From a virus (Duplodnaviria; Caudoviricetes): DNA of 64,000 bases. Below, one piece after another: positions 21,216-58,182 of this stretch. The notes under the pieces were generated by a model. The model had not been told where the DNA came from, did not search any database, and worked only from the letters and a program-made list of their open reading frames with translations. The stretch is taken from the IMG/VR virus record IMGVR_UViG_3300028888_000001. One strand, given 5' to 3'. Numbering within the stretch: position 1 is the first letter of the stretch; each line of letters starts with the position of its first letter. A program made the translations under genes and the position numbers.

Positions 21216-24200
21216 TTAAAAATTAAAGTTGTCCATATAGTTATAGTCTTCATCTTCTAGCATCCACGCTTGATTAGCTGGGACAGCAGTTGCTACAGGT
21301 CTATCACTGTCACTTTCAAAATTCTTATCAGTAGGATTATAGAATGATGAAAATACAGTTTCTGGCACATTGAATTGTCCATCTATAGAGACATATTTAT
21401 TCAAAGGCTGATCTTTTGGAATGCTATATAATTCTCTATATGCTTTTTCTCCAAGAGGAGTATTCAATAGAGCTTCAAATTGTTTATGCTCTTCAGTACG
21501 CTGCTTATTGAGGAATTCGTTTAGAGATGTTCCGCCTGCTTTAATAGCAGCATTTAAATCTGCTTCAATTGTTTGATCTATTTCGTCTTTGGTGCTAAAT
21601 GAGTATACTATATCTACAGTATCATCGTTAAAATAGTCTATTGGTTCATCTATATCTTCATCTGTCTTTATAGAGGTTTTCTTTATTCCATACCTCTCAG
21701 CAAGATTGATACCTTCATACCATACCCATAAAGCCATTAACCAAGAGAATATTTGGTCATCATGGGTAGAATCAGAATGCTCAACCTTACCATTCTTTTT
21801 TATTTCCATTCCTAAAAGCTCATTATAGATAATTGGAGATATAACTTTATCTTTATGACTTTCTACTCTATCTATTAATATATCTATTAATTGCTTACGC
21901 ACATCTCTGGTTGAATTCAATCCATAGACTTTAGTGCGTATTTTCTGCTTATATGCATGAACGCCATCTTGACGTTCTTCTACAGTAATATCTTTAATCT
22001 CATAATAAAGATTCTTTTTCAGTCCACCTTTAATAAGTCGGGCTATTACACTGGACCCATACCCCCCGTTCCTCTCGACATTTACGACAGCGTTTGGCAT
22101 CCAGTTTTTAACCATGAATTCAATACAGCGGGCTAAGTCAAATGCTGATATGTAATTACAATTTAAGCAGCCTAATACTTTAGTTGAGTAAGAGTCTATA
22201 ACTGTAATACATGAGCTGTCTTGCTTATAGCCAGCTGCAACGTCAACACCAATTATAGGCGGATACGTTCTAGTGTCTGCTTGTAGATAAGTTTCAAATC
22301 TATATTTACCTAATAGATATACTACAGAAATCGGTTGTTTAACAAGAGTGCTTATACTATTAAGATCTTCTTCTCTAAATGGGCTATTATCAACACCAGT
22401 AGACCACTCAAGAAGAATTTCTCTTCGAATATCTGGCCAAGAACCCTTAAGAAGCTTAGCGACTTCATTAAACCACTGCTCTGAGCAACCAAGTTGTTGA
22501 TATGTGAATTTAATATATACAAAATCAGATTTAGTATTAGCGTCTAGTATTTGCTTTAACTGTGGCCATGTAAGATCATACCAAGATTCAGAAAATGGTG
22601 TAGCTAATTCTTTAGTTTGATAGGCTTCTTTACCTTCCAATTATCTTCACATAGTTCGCTATACTATGCAGTTCTCTTATGAACTTCTATAGGTGTTACC
22701 TATACGTTGAGACTATATTACTGCTCTTATTATTTTATAAGAAGCTCTATTTATTTTGAACTCGCTTGAGCTCTACTCGCATGTAGCGATAGTCGTTGAA
22801 CTTTTTATTATGATATTTTTTTAAAATCTCATAATAACTTAGCTGCTGATTATACATTGTTAACGGCTTTTAGCACCATCATTATACAATGATGGCTTTT
22901 ATTTCAGCATGAGCCATCCTCTAATTTATTTCTATCTTTCGATTCCTATATTTAGGTATAGAGGCTTTAGCACTTCCCAGCAATTAAAATAGATTTAGAC
23001 ACCGTGTCACCACGATGAATGGACAAATTTTATCCGTGGTCATGAAGCCTGGCGTGGTGGTTATTAATACACCATATGGAGCACCATTCTTTTTAGCATT
23101 TGCAGCTGCAGTTTTAAATGCAGGTGCGCCATTCAGATATACTACACCATTATATGGTAAGAAAGCATACTCGTCAAACCAAAGTAAAACTAGCGTTTTA
23201 CCACGCAAGATACTTGCAGCTCTTGCTTTATTAGTTGCTGAAGCAAATACTTTAATAGTGTTATTATTAAACGGATTTGCCATTTCCGTCATATTATCTT
23301 TACCTTTTTGGATTTTTCCATCTGGTAAGACTCTTTCTTTCATAATAAGATATGGTGGAAGCATATCTCTTAAATCTTTAAGAGTTTGAATATTATCTTT
23401 AGCACCATCCATATTCTTATGCAAGAAAGCCATTTTGGAATTAGTCGTGGCAAAATTATAAATATATAAATATCTAACTGCCGCTGAGACAGTCTTACCT
23501 TGCTCGTTATCTTCACAGAGTTCGTTAAGCTCTGCAGTTCTCCTATGAACTTCTATAGGTGTTACCTATAGCACGAGACTATATCAGTATCCTATATGGT
23601 ATAGGATATTCTTCATTTCGATTTAAGGGGTTCTCACCCACTCACTTGAGCCCTACTCCTATAGACTATTTTTATAGCGCCATCCTATGGGATAGTCGTT
23701 GAACTTAATTTTTTATATATTAAGCTGCTGATTGTACATTGTTTATAGCTTTTAGCACTTCACATAAGTGAAGCTTTTATTTCAGCATGAGCCATCCTGA
23801 AACTTGTTTCTATCTTTCGATTCCTTATAGGCATTCAGGCTTTAGCACTTTCCAGCAATTAAAAGAAATTCACTCACAATATTACTACTATAAGTGGATT
23901 ATAAGATTAGTCGAGGCGCTTCATAAAATACATTAAGATTTAATGCTTGGCAAAAATTTAAAGCAAGATTACCTCTAGTAAGTTTATATCGCATTGGCGC
24001 ACCGCCAGGCGATGGGATTCTCACAACCTCGCGGATGAAATACCAATAATTACTGAGGCATTCTTTAAGTATTTTTTGCTTATAAAGCATATTTAGATTC
24101 GGATCATATGGATCTACACCATCTAGATCTGGATCTATTAACGTAAGCATAAACTCATTATTCTTAATACCGATGGCTTTAAGATAATGATGCATATCTA

Positions 24201-24330
24201 AAAACGATTTATTTTTAGTCGTTTTCTGCGCATAAATACGTTTTATTGGTGTCGGTTTTGCTATCACTGGAGGCGGCATAAAACTGCCCATTGTAGGTGT
24301 AGCAGATTGACCTGCAAACATTACAGGCAT
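21216..24330 (-). CDS. terL: Terminase large subunit, three exons (24330-23910, 23504-23032, 22637-21216; ~771 aa spliced)
   Basis: Joined Walker A PRQQGKT, Walker B LLWFDEYAF, ITTTPG coupling motif, nuclease IGVDVAAG..VERN..HDDQI. Confidence 0.9.
22638..23031 (-). ncRNA. Group I intron (394 nt, no ORF) in terL
   Basis: P aattgctgggaa, Q aatcagcagc, R gttcaacgacta, S aatatagtc; P1 ggaU/gucc; ends in G; restores GFMTTD|EGKEAY. Confidence 0.92.
23505..23909 (-). ncRNA. Group I intron (~405 nt, no ORF) in the terL Walker A codons
   Basis: Same P/Q/R/S core (aattgctggaaa, aatcagcagc, gttcaacgacta, gatatagtc); exact splice sites uncertain by 1-2 nt. Confidence 0.88.
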
Positions 24331-47449: not shown

Positions 47450-49489
47450 ATGCCAAGTGTAGGTATTAGAAAGTCTCCCAGTATGGGAAACTTTAGCAAA
47501 GACCCCATGTATGCGTATGCTGCAAGCTTCTGCGATGTGCAGAAGAACATTTTACGTGAGTCTCAAGTAGACTATGCTATGGAACCGCAGCGCGCTCTGG
47601 CTTTCAAGGGTAATGTTGATGCTCTTAAGAGCTTCTTTATTGAAAATTCTGTTATCGGAGATTCCAAGACTATTACACAGGAAGAGTATCAGGATCAGCT
47701 TGACATGATGTCTGAGGCTTTCCAGAATGATATCCAGGCAGTTCGTGAGAACGCCGTTGCCGGTATTGCTTCTTGGAATCCTATGATCGGTCTGTCTCTG
47801 CCTATGCATAAATATCTTATGCTTAATACCGTATTTGCACAAGCCGTTCCGCGTTTTGTTGCTAAGGCTCCGGCATGGACAGAATCCATCGAGACCCGTT
47901 ATATGGTTTCTCCTACCGGCGAAAAGATTGATATTGCAAATCAACAAAATCAGATTTATCGTATTTGGAGATCTGCTAATCAGCCTGTTGAAGTTCCTGT
48001 TGCACTTCCTGAGCTGCAGTCCATCGATATTCTTGACAAATATTTCTCTGTTTCTCGTGTTTCTCATAATCTTTCTGTTGCTACTCACATTTCCGCTATT
48101 CTTGTAGAAGACTTTGCTAAGGCTGGCGATACTGTAGTAACCATGACTCAAGGAACAGATGGATATGAATTTACTGAAGCTGAAGCTACCGCTGATGGTA
48201 AAGCTCTAGTTTGGAAGCCTTGGAAGGCTGAATTCACTCCTGGATATGGCGATGCTAATCGTATTATCGTTTCTCCTGTAGATATTCTTGTTACCACTGA
48301 TGGTACCGAAGCTACTGAAACTGCAGTTCATGATACGATCTTTGCTTCTCAGCGTGAGAACATGTTTGAGATTAACTCTACCTCTGGTGCAGTTAAAGCT
48401 GTTAAGATCTGGGCTCGCTATGATGCATCCTCTAGAACACGCAAGACACCTCGTGTAGAGTGGGGTGAGAAGACTATCTTCGTACAGGTTCCTGAAAACG
48501 ATGGTATTACTGTACCTGTAACTCCTGAGGAAGTTAAGGATATTGGAGCTCTGTATGGCATTAACCAGGTTACCAAGTACATGAGCATGATCAAAGACGT
48601 TATGGAGAACGTTAAGGATGATGATATTCATGAGCAGCTTGACCTGAGCTTCGAGCGTCTTGATGACGAGCATAAGCTTGCTAAGACTATTGACTTTGCG
48701 CCTCGTGTAGGATATTACAGCGATCATCTTGAATGGCTGCAGAAGACCTTCATGAACTCATTAGATCAGTTCATCACCGGTCTACTTACAGTTCTGAGAG
48801 ATCCTAACATGGAAATCAGTCTTATTGCAAGGCCTGGCATTATCCGTCAGATCACTCCTATCGAGTACACCTATCAGACTTCTGATTCTGTTGGCCCGAT
48901 CCAGCTTGATTTCAAGAAGACTGTTGTTACTAGCGATCATCGTGTATACAACTTCATTAGCTCCGATAAGCTGTTTGGTAATGACAACATCATTATCCTG
49001 CTTAACCCGAAGAATACCAATCGTATAGTCTACAGACTGTATGATTATCAGATGTATCTTTCCAATGAGATTCGTGACGCTGAGAATCCGCAGCTTCCCG
49101 CTCTGACTGCATTCGAAAGATATAAATTCTTTGAACTGTTCCCGGTTCAGGGTAGAATGTTTGTTGCAAATCCGTCTGGGCTTAGAGAGCATCTTCCGAA
49201 CGTTGATCCTATCGGTCGTCCGGCTGATGGTAGCCTGTATGCAAATAATGATTTGAATAGTACTTTCAGTCATTGGTCGGATCTCACCGGACGTAATGCT
49301 ATTACCGAGAACGTTCTACCTGAGACTGACGCCACTGGTAATAGTGGTCAAGGCGGTACTACTGGCGGTGGCACGACTGGTGGCGGAACTACAGGTGGTG
49401 GTACAACTGGTGGAGGTACAACTGGCGGTGGAACCACTGGAGGCGGTACGACTGGTGGAGGTACAACTGGCGGTGGTACTACTCCGTAA
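47450..49489 (+). CDS. Major capsid protein with C-terminal (GGGTT)n tail
   Basis: Strong codon bias, late-type promoter 47332-47344, strong RBS, propeptide ending near VRE|NA, position in the head cluster. Confidence 0.75.
   Translation: MPSVGIRKSPSMGNFSKDPMYAYAASFCDVQKNILRESQVDYAMEPQRALAFKGNVDALKSFFIENSVIGDSKTITQEEYQDQLDMMSEAFQNDIQAVRENAVAGIASWNPMIGLSLPMHKYLMLNTVFAQAVPRFVAKAPAWTESIETRYMVSPTGEKIDIANQQNQIYRIWRSANQPVEVPVALPELQSIDILDKYFSVSRVSHNLSVATHISAILVEDFAKAGDTVVTMTQGTDGYEFTEAEATADGKALVWKPWKAEFTPGYGDANRIIVSPVDILVTTDGTEATETAVHDTIFASQRENMFEINSTSGAVKAVKIWARYDASSRTRKTPRVEWGEKTIFVQVPENDGITVPVTPEEVKDIGALYGINQVTKYMSMIKDVMENVKDDDIHEQLDLSFERLDDEHKLAKTIDFAPRVGYYSDHLEWLQKTFMNSLDQFITGLLTVLRDPNMEISLIARPGIIRQITPIEYTYQTSDSVGPIQLDFKKTVVTSDHRVYNFISSDKLFGNDNIIILLNPKNTNRIVYRLYDYQMYLSNEIRDAENPQLPALTAFERYKFFELFPVQGRMFVANPSGLREHLPNVDPIGRPADGSLYANNDLNSTFSHWSDLTGRNAITENVLPETDATGNSGQGGTTGGGTTGGGTTGGGTTGGGTTGGGTTGGGTTGGGTTGGGTTP
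49352..49483 (+). repeat. Codon-diversified 15-nt tandem repeat encoding ~9 GGGTT units
   Basis: ggN ggN ggN acN acN periodicity. Confidence 0.9.
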
Positions 49490-49521
49490 TAAACAATTAA
49501 ATATAATACTAGCAAGTATTA

Positions 49522-49557
49522 AACCCGTAGGGAGAAATCCCTACGGGTTTTCTTTTG
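49522..49557. terminator. MCP intrinsic terminator
   Basis: aacccgtaggga-gaaa-tccctacgggtt plus T-tract; similar hairpins at ~7967, 13426, 17785, 35762, 37848, 41172, 41976, 51796, 61211. Confidence 0.85.
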
Positions 49558-49650
49558 ATTAATTGTTTATGATTTTAACATTGATTTTAGCATTCGTTCT
49601 TTTTACTTGTATCCATTAAAACATATAATGATTTATTTTTTGAAGGTCGT

Positions 49651-49922
49651 TTACCTTTTAACCGATGCTCCATAATTTCATCTATTTCCATTTCTCGTTC
49701 ACCCAGATCATTCAAATACTCTTCAGGATAATTACGTTTTCTGCATACTTTATTATACATACTAGCTGCAGCTTCTGCATCATCAAATGTAAAATAATAA
49801 TCCCCATCTACTCTACAGAAATAGTTATCTGATTTATTTGGGAATACGCCAAAATATCCTGTAGAATTTAGATTTTCTTTTGTTTTTACAGACGTGGAAA
49901 ATTTGTTTATTTTGATTGTATA
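49651..49922 (-). pseudogene. Decayed AP2-domain gene (HNH-AP2 endonuclease-type remnant)
   Basis: NSTGYFGVFPNKSDNYFCRVDGDYYFTFDDAEAAASMYNK, then a frameshift into VCRKRNYPEEYLNDLG; no start codon. Confidence 0.6.
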
Positions 49923-49927
49923 TTATA

Positions 49928-50360
49928 GCAGTAGATAGAAGACAATAGTCTCTATTAGCCGGCCTTTTGGCGTGCTTGAAATAGTACGAACAAGCAAAAC
50001 TTGTTCTCAAAAAGGTCAGGTAAAATAAGATGGTAACGCTTTTGATAGCGTCTATTAGTTTATCATTAAGTAACACGAAAAGACTAATAGCGGAGCACAT
50101 ATATTTTATCTGGTCTGTCGGGAGTACGATAGGGGATACTCGTGCAAAACGACTAAAAGGCAAAAGAATAGATTATTCCCGTTTATACTAACCTATCAAT
50201 AGTATAAAAGGTTAAGCTTGTCAACTTGACCTCGCTCTGCATACTATAGGTGACAATCTATAGTATGAACAAAGCAATCGTAATTTATTTTTTTGTAAGA
50301 TATTACCGTTTAATTTCGATGGGAGCTTCGGCTCCCACACCTTCGGGCGGTTTTATTTTT
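49928..50360 (+). ncRNA. Large structured non-coding RNA, family unassigned
   Basis: Early-type promoter 49917-49927, at least 9 hairpins, two perfect 6-bp loop-loop pairs, terminal UUCG hairpins plus U-tract, no credible ORF. Confidence 0.75.
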
Positions 50361-50442
50361 TCTTCTTTTTCTCATTATTTGGACAATCAAATAATGAGAA
50401 AAACAAACTTTACTTTATATTTTTTAAGGAGATAAACAAGAC

Positions 50443-50640
50443 ATGTATAATTATTATAAGTCTCCTGCGGAGGTATATCACGAATCTAATATATTAAGTA
50501 AAGCTTTAACTCGTGGTACAACTAATAGTTTATATCCAATGACGGATATCAATTCAGTATTCACTCATTTTGATCCATCGGTTGGTAAAAATGTACCGAC
50601 GGCAAATGTTTTATCAAAAAATAATTTAAAGGAGAGTTGA
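50443..50640 (+). CDS. Small late protein
   Basis: RBS aaggag; GACA-N6-TAA 50382-50394. Confidence 0.6.
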   Translation: MYNYYKSPAEVYHESNILSKALTRGTTNSLYPMTDINSVFTHFDPSVGKNVPTANVLSKNNLKES

Positions 50641-56242: not shown

Positions 56243-58182
56243 ATGAAGATGTATGATTTAGTAAATAAGGAGGGATTTATCCATGTTGATGATTGGGACA
56301 CTGAAGAAAACCCGGCCCCGGAAGAAGATCGAATATTCAAAAACATTAAGGGAGAGATAATATTACCAATACATGAGCTGTTTGGTAATCCAAATGACTC
56401 AGCGGATGCACAACAATTAGATTATTTTGCTATGTCACCAAAACGTTCATATAATTCAGATGAGACTAGAGAACATATTTGCCGTTATCTGAATTATTTT
56501 GAAAAGTTTTATGATACTGACAAAGAATTGTTAATGGTTTTGTATGAAATCAAGATAAATATAGACTACATTCATAGTTATTCTATTCAGAACTTCATGG
56601 ATGATGTCAATAGATACATCATACGAAATCTCAATATAACGCTGAAGATTAGGCATTTTGTAGATGATAATTATTTGATGCATCTAACGTCGAACAATAG
56701 AACTCCGAATCTTCAGTTTAACAATGTACACGCAAAGATACTTTACGAAATTTCTCTTTTGAGCAATATGTATATACCATTAGCTTGCCACTATATGTAT
56801 ATACATTTCATAAAAAATGAAAAAATAGCAGAATTTATGTTGCAACTATTTGATATGGCTATGGTAAAATATGAAGAAGAGCGAGGTGTGTATATATTTG
56901 ATAAGCTATTAGAGACAGCCATTTCAGTTGTAAATAAATCTAAGAATCCAGATCAGCTATTATGGGAAAAGAATCTTATTCGTGGTAATAATACAACAAC
57001 GCATGCAAGAGACAGCGTTAATGATATTATCCTTCAAATTCTTCCCAAATATAAGTATACTGCAAACGTTGTATCATTTAATTATTATTCAAGTAGAAAA
57101 ACTTTGCAGTATAAAATTACTGATAATTCGTATGAATTTAATTTTTCTAAGTTAAGTTCATCGAAAAGAGATAGTGATCAAAACAGCGAATACGATAAAA
57201 TATCTTGTCGCCTCATTGTGGTAACACAGTGTTGAATAACTCTTTTTAATTGCTGGGAAGTGCTAAGAGCCTCTATGCCTAAATGGAGACGAAAGTCAGA
57301 AATAAGTTAGAGGATGGCTCATGCTGAAATAAAAGCTTCACTTATGTGAGGTGCTAAAAGCCGTTAACAATGTATAATCAGCAACCAAGCTATATTTATA
57401 CAATATAGAAGGTTCAACGACTATCTTAGGAATAAGATTAGAGCTCAAGTGAGTTCAAAATGGAAGAGCATCCTATACGACATAGGATGGTGATATAGTC
57501 TGAGCATCCAGAGAAATACTGGAGAAGTTCATAAGAGAACTGCTAGGATTAACGACCCTAGTGAACATAGCTGAGGTATGAGGCCCGATTATCGAAGAGA
57601 GACGAAGCTCTGTATCTTCAGAATAAAGTTGCAGCTGAGCAAACTGTAAAAGTTATAGAGCAATTATATGGGCCATTTGAACAAGAAGAAATCAATCACT
57701 ATAAAGCTAAACTTATAGTAGATGGATCTCCACTAATTCATCCACTACAAAGACAGCTTATAGGATATCTTTATTATAAAGACTTCTCAGATCCGATAAC
57801 ATACATGAGTATACATAACTCGACAGATTATATTAAACTCATTATTGCGGCTAAGAGAATGTTACTTAATACTGGCATGGTATTATTACCATATATAATG
57901 AGTTCTAAAGTTACTCGATTGGCAACTAGAAAAATTATATCTAAAAGAGACATCACTAAGCAAGAGAATTCCGTTATATATGAACAGCTTAAAGAAAAAT
58001 ATAATAATGAAAAAGTAATTCAAAAGATATGGGAATTTATAGGAATGGTATGCTCTTCTTCATTTCAGATTATTGATTATGATATTAATAACCATTGCCC
58101 TACTCAATATGATGGAAAAATGGTTCCAATGATTAACGATATTTTGAATGAGGAATTGTTATTCTTTATAATTTCAATTTGA
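56243..58182 (+). CDS. Intron-split 520-aa protein (56243-57196 + 57574-58182), candidate sigma-like promoter-specificity subunit of the nvRNAP
   Basis: Spliced frame continuous (SEYD|RYEARLSKRDEALY). Function inferred only from size, early-type promoter and position two genes from the chaperonin, as for AR9 gp226/gp228. Confidence 0.55.
57197..57573 (+). ncRNA. Group I intron (377 nt, no ORF)
   Basis: P aattgctgggaa, Q aatcagcaacc, R gttcaacgacta, S gatatagtc; P1 cgaU/gucg; P10 aggtat/atatct; terminal G. Confidence 0.93.

Follow-up and report, generated by a model that had tools for sequence, protein, structure and literature searches.

The interval behind the major capsid gene of the phage considered here contains no apparent protein gene, and the question it raises is what it encodes. 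The window (the whole stretch of DNA that was analysed, 64,000 nt) is part of a complete virus genome of 313,331 bp with terminal repeats. Comparison of its capsid, terminase and chaperonin sequences aligns the phage, at some distance, with jumbo phages of the AR9/phiR1-37 group, and the metagenome sets that yielded its closer relatives are, judging by their names, presumably rumen studies. A first-pass annotation had read positions 49917-50360 as a stand-alone, strongly structured phage RNA that it could not match to tRNA, tmRNA, RNase P or group I/II introns. The promoter and terminator, the folding statistics and the lack of a family match all support this reading, and the locus is very probably an uncatalogued structured RNA gene. 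That it gives rise to a real structured transcript is highly likely; self-assembly and a new RNA class are possible. Elsewhere in the window, the gene for the terminase large subunit (21216-24330, - strand) is split over three ORF pieces. Among the relatives, L079, a contig of 246 kb whose capsid gene is related (40% identity), is listed as part of a Candidatus Izemoplasmatales MAG, and is either a mis-binned phage or a hint at the host of a distant relative.

The major capsid gene (47450..49550, + strand; PHROG major head protein, 20% identical to phiR1-37 g135) ends in a terminator of its own (49521-49550) that separates its transcript from the RNA. Its protein product ends in a long Gly/Thr repeat (window 49352-49489, +). 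Next to it lies the C-terminal part of an HNH endonuclease gene (49590..49874, - strand), inverted, truncated at its 5' end with no upstream start codon, and divergent from the RNA. The RNA gene itself begins with an early promoter of the AR9 type, used by the virion RNA polymerase (49916..49933, +). In AR9, transcription from early promoters starts six nucleotides after the conserved element (PMC5312081). The motif at 49917-49927 fits the early consensus, both the consensus and the spacing rule being those of AR9, and the genome's own promoter copies likewise show a T followed by a purine at the start position; the predicted +1 is therefore A49933. The promoter copy named in the first-pass annotation is thus present, and in its strict form it is found 27 times across the genome, compared with 0-3 times in shuffles.

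The transcript would open with a hairpin, H1 (49934..49956, +; pair probability 0.99). Since a hairpin directly at +1 is common after many early promoters of the same phage, H1 is probably not specific to this RNA but a protective stem that early transcripts share. At the other end, a spacer and a twin-UUCG terminator with a U-tract (50297..50360, +) set a predicted 3' end at about 50358. The genome contains this terminator four times, and in relatives comparable terminators stand behind protein genes. Two UUCG hairpins had been described here: the first is the main terminator hairpin and is stable (P 0.99), with no antiterminator predicted, but the second amounts to 2-3 bp only, and its predicted pairing partner is 50305-11. 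Promoter, +1 hairpin and terminator are reused across the genome and are thus stock parts of a cassette, and the specific cargo is therefore about 49957-50296. From these signals we infer transcription from 49933 to about 50358, and a predicted RNA of about 365-430 nt with a core of ~364 nt. The interval is ORF-poor, as annotated, with gene callers calling nothing in the gap and no credible ORF in the unit; a 109-aa ORF on the minus strand was dismissed, as it matches no family and is skipped by gene callers. It is also GC-richer (36.5%) than its flanks (28-29%) and the genome (32.5%), again in line with the annotation. The gap of 682 nt is identical in length across independent assemblies (the contig recurs in run SRR9006805 and assembly ERZ27257205), which rules out an assembly artefact. 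Directly after the terminator, upstream of a gene for a 65-aa protein, there is an inverted repeat of 18/19 bp (window 50363-50406).

The folding energy of this interval stands out from its surroundings. Positions 49917-50360 give a z-score of -7.0, and the core (49933-50296) gives -8.3 on the + strand, where it has 14 G-U pairs, against -4.8 on the opposite strand; the neighbouring 357 nt reach only -0.4. Of the 1720 windows on the + strand of the genome, those covering the element take ranks 1 and 4 once composition is corrected for. The core is predicted to form two multi-helix domains. Domain I (49962..50161, +; z -5.2) is, as a single-sequence prediction, a multi-way junction closed by helix 49962-70/50153-61, and comprises H3 (49971-88), H4 (49988-50006), the long arm H5 (50013-50116) and the ambiguous H6 (50114-53). 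Within the H5 arm there are hairpins at 50036-51 and 50052-90, each with a mean pair probability of about 0.5, and the closure of the domain has competing alternatives. Domain II (50160..50296, +; z -7.2 on the + strand and -5.1 on the - strand) is predicted as a four-way junction with helix probabilities of 0.9-1.0, in which the 17-bp helix H7 (50160-76/50280-96; P 0.9) encloses H8 (50182-208), H9 (50209-32) and H10 (50240-67). H7 had been missing from the stems of the first-pass annotation; one of its strands is A-rich and the other U-rich, in a genome that is itself AT-rich, which counts against the fold. In addition, a helix between 49951-68 and 50155-72 is predicted to compete with both H1 and H7.

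Mean pair probabilities of at least 0.8 are found for H1, H3, H4, H5, H8, H9, H10 and the first UUCG hairpin. All of the stems and loop motifs originally listed are present in the sequence at the coordinates given for them, and most of the stems hold in the predicted ensemble, but two do not. The stem 49961/50017 has a probability of 0.01-0.03, as 49962-70 prefers 50153-61 (P 0.4-0.7), and the stem 50122/50141, which was meant to display 50128-33 as a loop, has a probability of 0.01 in the nested ensemble.

The same stem bears on the claim that hairpin loops of the RNA are complementary to one another. The proposed pairing of TTGTCA with TGACAA stood up best: in this contact, K2 (+ strand), the H9 loop (50218-23) and the H10 loop (50251-56) form six Watson-Crick pairs centred in two 8-nt loops, with p about 0.009 among confident hairpins and a net energy of about -2.4 kcal/mol after the opening cost. 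The second contact, K1 (+ strand), joins the H8 loop (50191-99), wholly unpaired in the ensemble, either to 50128-33 (6 bp) or to 50042-48 (7 bp), two mutually exclusive partners that match equally well. Pairing with 50128-33 has an opening cost of 2.8 and a net energy of -3.3 kcal/mol. The GATAGG/CCTATC complementarity behind this kiss is genuine as sequence, but its displaying stem is nearly absent unless the kiss forms and 50042-48 rivals 50128-33, which leaves K1 ambiguous. A weaker kiss suggested between 50043 and 50061 is energetically unfavourable (net +1.3 kcal/mol). A possible third long-range pair, 50091-96/50234-39 (+), was picked out post hoc, at a net energy of about -2.7 kcal/mol. 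Two disjoint 6-bp loop-loop matches have p 0.001 with hand-picked loops and p 0.012 in an unbiased shuffle-and-fold pipeline; these tests, like that of K2, draw on a single sequence and are partly post hoc. The RNA probably contains at least one real kiss. Because two short stems lying 7 nt apart on one junction could hardly stack through a 6-bp helix, we hypothesize that K2 forms more readily between two molecules than within one. An oligomer is plausible on this geometry, with the balance somewhat against it.

Searches of RNA families returned nothing at gathering score over the whole window, and over 49925-50310 Rfam gave a single match only (E 9.4), with RNase P, SRP, 6S, OLE, group II introns and riboswitches all unmatched. 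At E values up to 10, the ROOL model (RF03087) finds nothing in the region, nor does it match genome-wide, the latter search having been run without a positive control, and the model of the conserved 3' domain of GOLLD (RF02032) matches neither in the region nor in the genome. With ARAGORN and Rfam, neither a cloverleaf nor tRNA-like ends with a tag frame were found at the RNA. For HEARO/omega RNA there is no model match, and no intact nuclease ORF lies downstream on the same strand. These results bear out the earlier statement that the RNA matches no tRNA, tmRNA, RNase P or group I/II intron, and the Rfam comparison then recommended (ROOL, GOLLD, OLE, HEARO and tmRNA) yielded no match. The group I model RF00028 matches ten places in the genome, and the RNA locus is not among them; one group I intron (window 57196-57573, +) splits an RNA polymerase-related gene. 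The RNA holds two short group I-like words in permuted order. A group I intron, linear or permuted, was considered and rejected, as a profile built from the phage's own introns gives the RNA scores no better than those of shuffles, and the S-like word and the P3-like strand lie too close together to accommodate P9/P1.

Homologues were sought at several levels. Blastn against phages and plasmids, and blast and nhmmer over 95 loci (680 kb), found no homologue, and five DNA patterns run against IMG/VR gave nothing or chance matches, those read falling inside ORFs. Two single-sequence covariance models, one of domain II and one of 50008-50165, which reach fairly close relatives only, found no homologue in 20 related uncultured phage records (one of them a contig within a MAG), five cultured AR9-like phages and 149 bacterial genomes; the phiR1-37, AR9, SA1, LPJP1 and BpSp genomes gave no significant match. 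A DNA search of 399 bacterial genomes matched the U-rich end only. The RNA was likewise not found in six related virus records that are at least 90% complete, nor alongside the nearest relatives of the HNH remnant. The closest relatives (88% capsid identity) were covered up to 10 kb around marker genes only, and models built from one sequence are insensitive, so that the negative searches speak for rarity of the RNA, not for its absence. Between tRNA-Gln and tRNA-Leu, the genome carries an ORF-free, end-paired stretch of ~620 nt (L082:8470-9095, - strand; genome about 166470-167095; z -4.6) that matches no Rfam family, ROOL or GOLLD. In a covariance-model comparison this stretch is unrelated to the RNA and was rejected as a paralogue.

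More can be learned from the slot itself. The stretch from the capsid gene to a conserved 382-aa gene was compared in about 26 distinct versions, from relatives with 34-89% capsid identity. The slot varies from 130 to 3600 nt, and blast and nhmmer find the RNA in none of them, including those whose capsid protein is 86-89% identical, so that the collection of homologues behind the capsid gene of AR9-like contigs, as proposed in the first-pass annotation, came back empty. The cargo in relatives is variable: often HNH genes, but also small ORFs and, in one case, an ORF-free folded segment. In L051 (8039-10595), L052, L087 and L097, up to three tandem genes of the HNH endonuclease family sit directly behind the capsid gene, and in the closest relatives these genes follow the same early promoter as the RNA; this promoter also opens the slot in L051, L030 and L074. 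The HNH remnant beside the RNA shares 41-52% identity with the C-terminal portions of HNH-family proteins, and its full-length relatives occupy the same slot, on the + strand, in the four relatives with tandem genes. In L012 (7785-8085, +), the early promoter is followed by about 270 ORF-free nt (z -4.3) in the capsid-adjacent slot. As a homologue of the RNA this segment was rejected, its fold being different and homology lacking; it may represent a further ncRNA or else the long leader of a 160-aa gene. The 65-aa protein encoded downstream of the RNA (window 50443-50640, +) resembles the C-terminal end of the capsid protein in the phage and its relatives, which suggests a duplicated capsid tail peptide.

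Judging from these comparisons, the site behind the capsid gene is a swap slot for early cassettes, and adjacency to the capsid gene accordingly says nothing about function. The place of the RNA beside that gene thus looks accidental, and the best reading of the comparison is an accessory, optional early gene of this AR9-like phage. This runs against the tie to the capsid or to packaging that the annotation implied, as do the early type of the promoter and the presence of a terminase large subunit. A packaging or prohead RNA resembling phi29 pRNA is highly improbable, even though the RNA adjoins the capsid gene and domain II (137 nt, with a long closing helix, a junction and two complementary loops) recalls the 120-nt pRNA core (PMC4201828). 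The pRNA is essential, but this RNA is absent from the slot in the about 26 relatives compared and was not found in the six records that are at least 90% complete; moreover, its junction is four-way, not three-way, and the capsid gene ends at its own terminator. A role as cis-acting leader or attenuator of the downstream genes for the 65-aa and 382-aa proteins is very unlikely: the competing helices described above and the weakened second hairpin of the terminator would suit it, but the same genes lack the leader in all relatives examined, and the main terminator hairpin is stable without a predicted antiterminator.

Turnover in the slot also raises the question of whether the RNA does anything at all. 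A structured piece derived from a mobile element or intron could have been left in an endonuclease hot spot as a functionless passenger, and the fast-turnover slot, the broken, inverted HNH gene that abuts the RNA, the many group I introns of the genome and the two permuted group I-like words are consistent with this. However, the intact promoter at the right distance, the intact stems and the matched loops argue against decay, and neither the own-intron profile nor any Rfam intron model recognizes the RNA, making such a relic quite unlikely. If the RNA is functional, its loops might seed on host or phage RNAs, with their mutual complementarity an off-state or chance. The H8 and H9 loops are fully exposed, and the H9 loop starts with a U-turn-type (YUNR) word, a feature of antisense recognition loops. 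Nevertheless, a base-pairing regulator seems distinctly doubtful, given that exact matches to the RNA elsewhere in the phage genome do not exceed 15 nt, the longest being of low complexity, and that the RNA far surpasses typical sRNAs in size and in the extent of its pairing. Also unlikely is an oligomer or cage in the manner of ROOL and GOLLD, made of RNA only and working with no protein partner. In its favour are the two or three long-range contacts, the geometry of K2 and the precedent of known cages, which use kissing loops that were in some cases first read as intramolecular (PMC12286853); against it, neither model matches, the RNA is shorter than both, and it lies outside the tRNA island, which is 29 kb away and has its own ~620-nt candidate.

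The reading to which we give an even chance is that of an accessory, stand-alone ncRNA gene of an AR9/phiR1-37-like jumbo phage, carried as early-cassette cargo in the swap slot. At the start of infection, going by the AR9 promoter rule, the virion RNA polymerase would transcribe 49933 to about 50358, and the 5' hairpin and terminator would shield the ends of the transcript. The ~364-nt core, as computed from one sequence, would fold into its two domains; the H8 loop would dock onto domain I, and the H9 and H10 loops would kiss, by geometry more readily between two molecules. The resulting RNA, compact and possibly oligomeric, might during takeover engage one of the host's RNA-binding proteins in trans, serving as its decoy or scaffold; a defence or stress protein is the most plausible partner. 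Such a role is tentative, with the chances clearly against it, though an optional early gene in a fast-turnover slot would fit a part in conflict, and the phage's own genome offers no long antisense target. In its boldest and fairly unlikely form, the RNA would be the founder of a new class of ornate RNA, one that is made within minutes of the start of infection, assembles through H9 and H10 into rings or cages, has an H8 loop that alternates between its two partners, and neutralises a host defence or stress protein.

To our knowledge, natural RNA-only oligomers are known from a few families only, and no function has been assigned to any of these. A shorter, unrelated RNA whose kissing loops look designed offers a direct in vitro test of how general RNA-only assemblies are. 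The early promoter and the optional, cassette-like placement point to phage-host conflict, not to virion assembly. If AR9-like rumen phages indeed swap ncRNAs in early cassettes as they do small proteins, an overlooked layer of accessory genes would come into view.

Comparison with known systems puts these features in context. HEARO and omega RNAs are structured, several hundred nucleotides long and located next to an HNH-type gene, with an intact ORF downstream. The RNA resembles them in size, structure and an adjoining HNH-type gene, but its neighbour is a truncated phage HNH fragment on the opposite strand, full-length relatives of which occur without the RNA, and there is no Rfam match. 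The phi29 pRNA is essential and has a 120-nt core (PMC4201828). As in pRNA, a long helix is predicted to close a junction that presents two complementary loops, possibly pairing between molecules; in contrast to the three-way pRNA, a four-way junction, a third hairpin, a second domain and a 6-bp kiss are predicted. Furthermore, the RNA is not kept among relatives, the phage has a terminase large subunit and Rfam gives no match. A packaging role is unlikely given the essential nature of pRNA and this terminase. Orphan ncRNAs of jumbo phages include ncRNA001-004 of PA5oct, which are abundant and 236-619 nt in length (PMC7318152), and misc_4 of phiR1-37, which is 297 nt in length (PMC4848604), all shown by RNA-seq. 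The RNA is similarly ORF-free, intergenic, of comparable size and without known relatives, although it is predicted from sequence alone. ROOL (RF03087) and GOLLD (RF02032) form RNA-only, homo-oligomeric cages that are built from kissing loops and A-minor contacts, and some of these loops were first taken as intramolecular (PMC12286853). Like them, the RNA is phage-borne, large and multi-junction, with several predicted loop-loop or pseudoknot contacts, and is apparently optional. Unlike them, it has a phage early promoter of its own, is not beside tRNAs (the nearest being about 79 kb away), matches neither model at E 10 and is only a candidate for oligomer formation. At 364-426 nt, it is also smaller than ROOL (574 model positions; about 570-660 nt, often near tRNA islands) and GOLLD (often >800 nt). 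Although membership in both families fails, the predicted architecture of the RNA is closest to that of ROOL and GOLLD.
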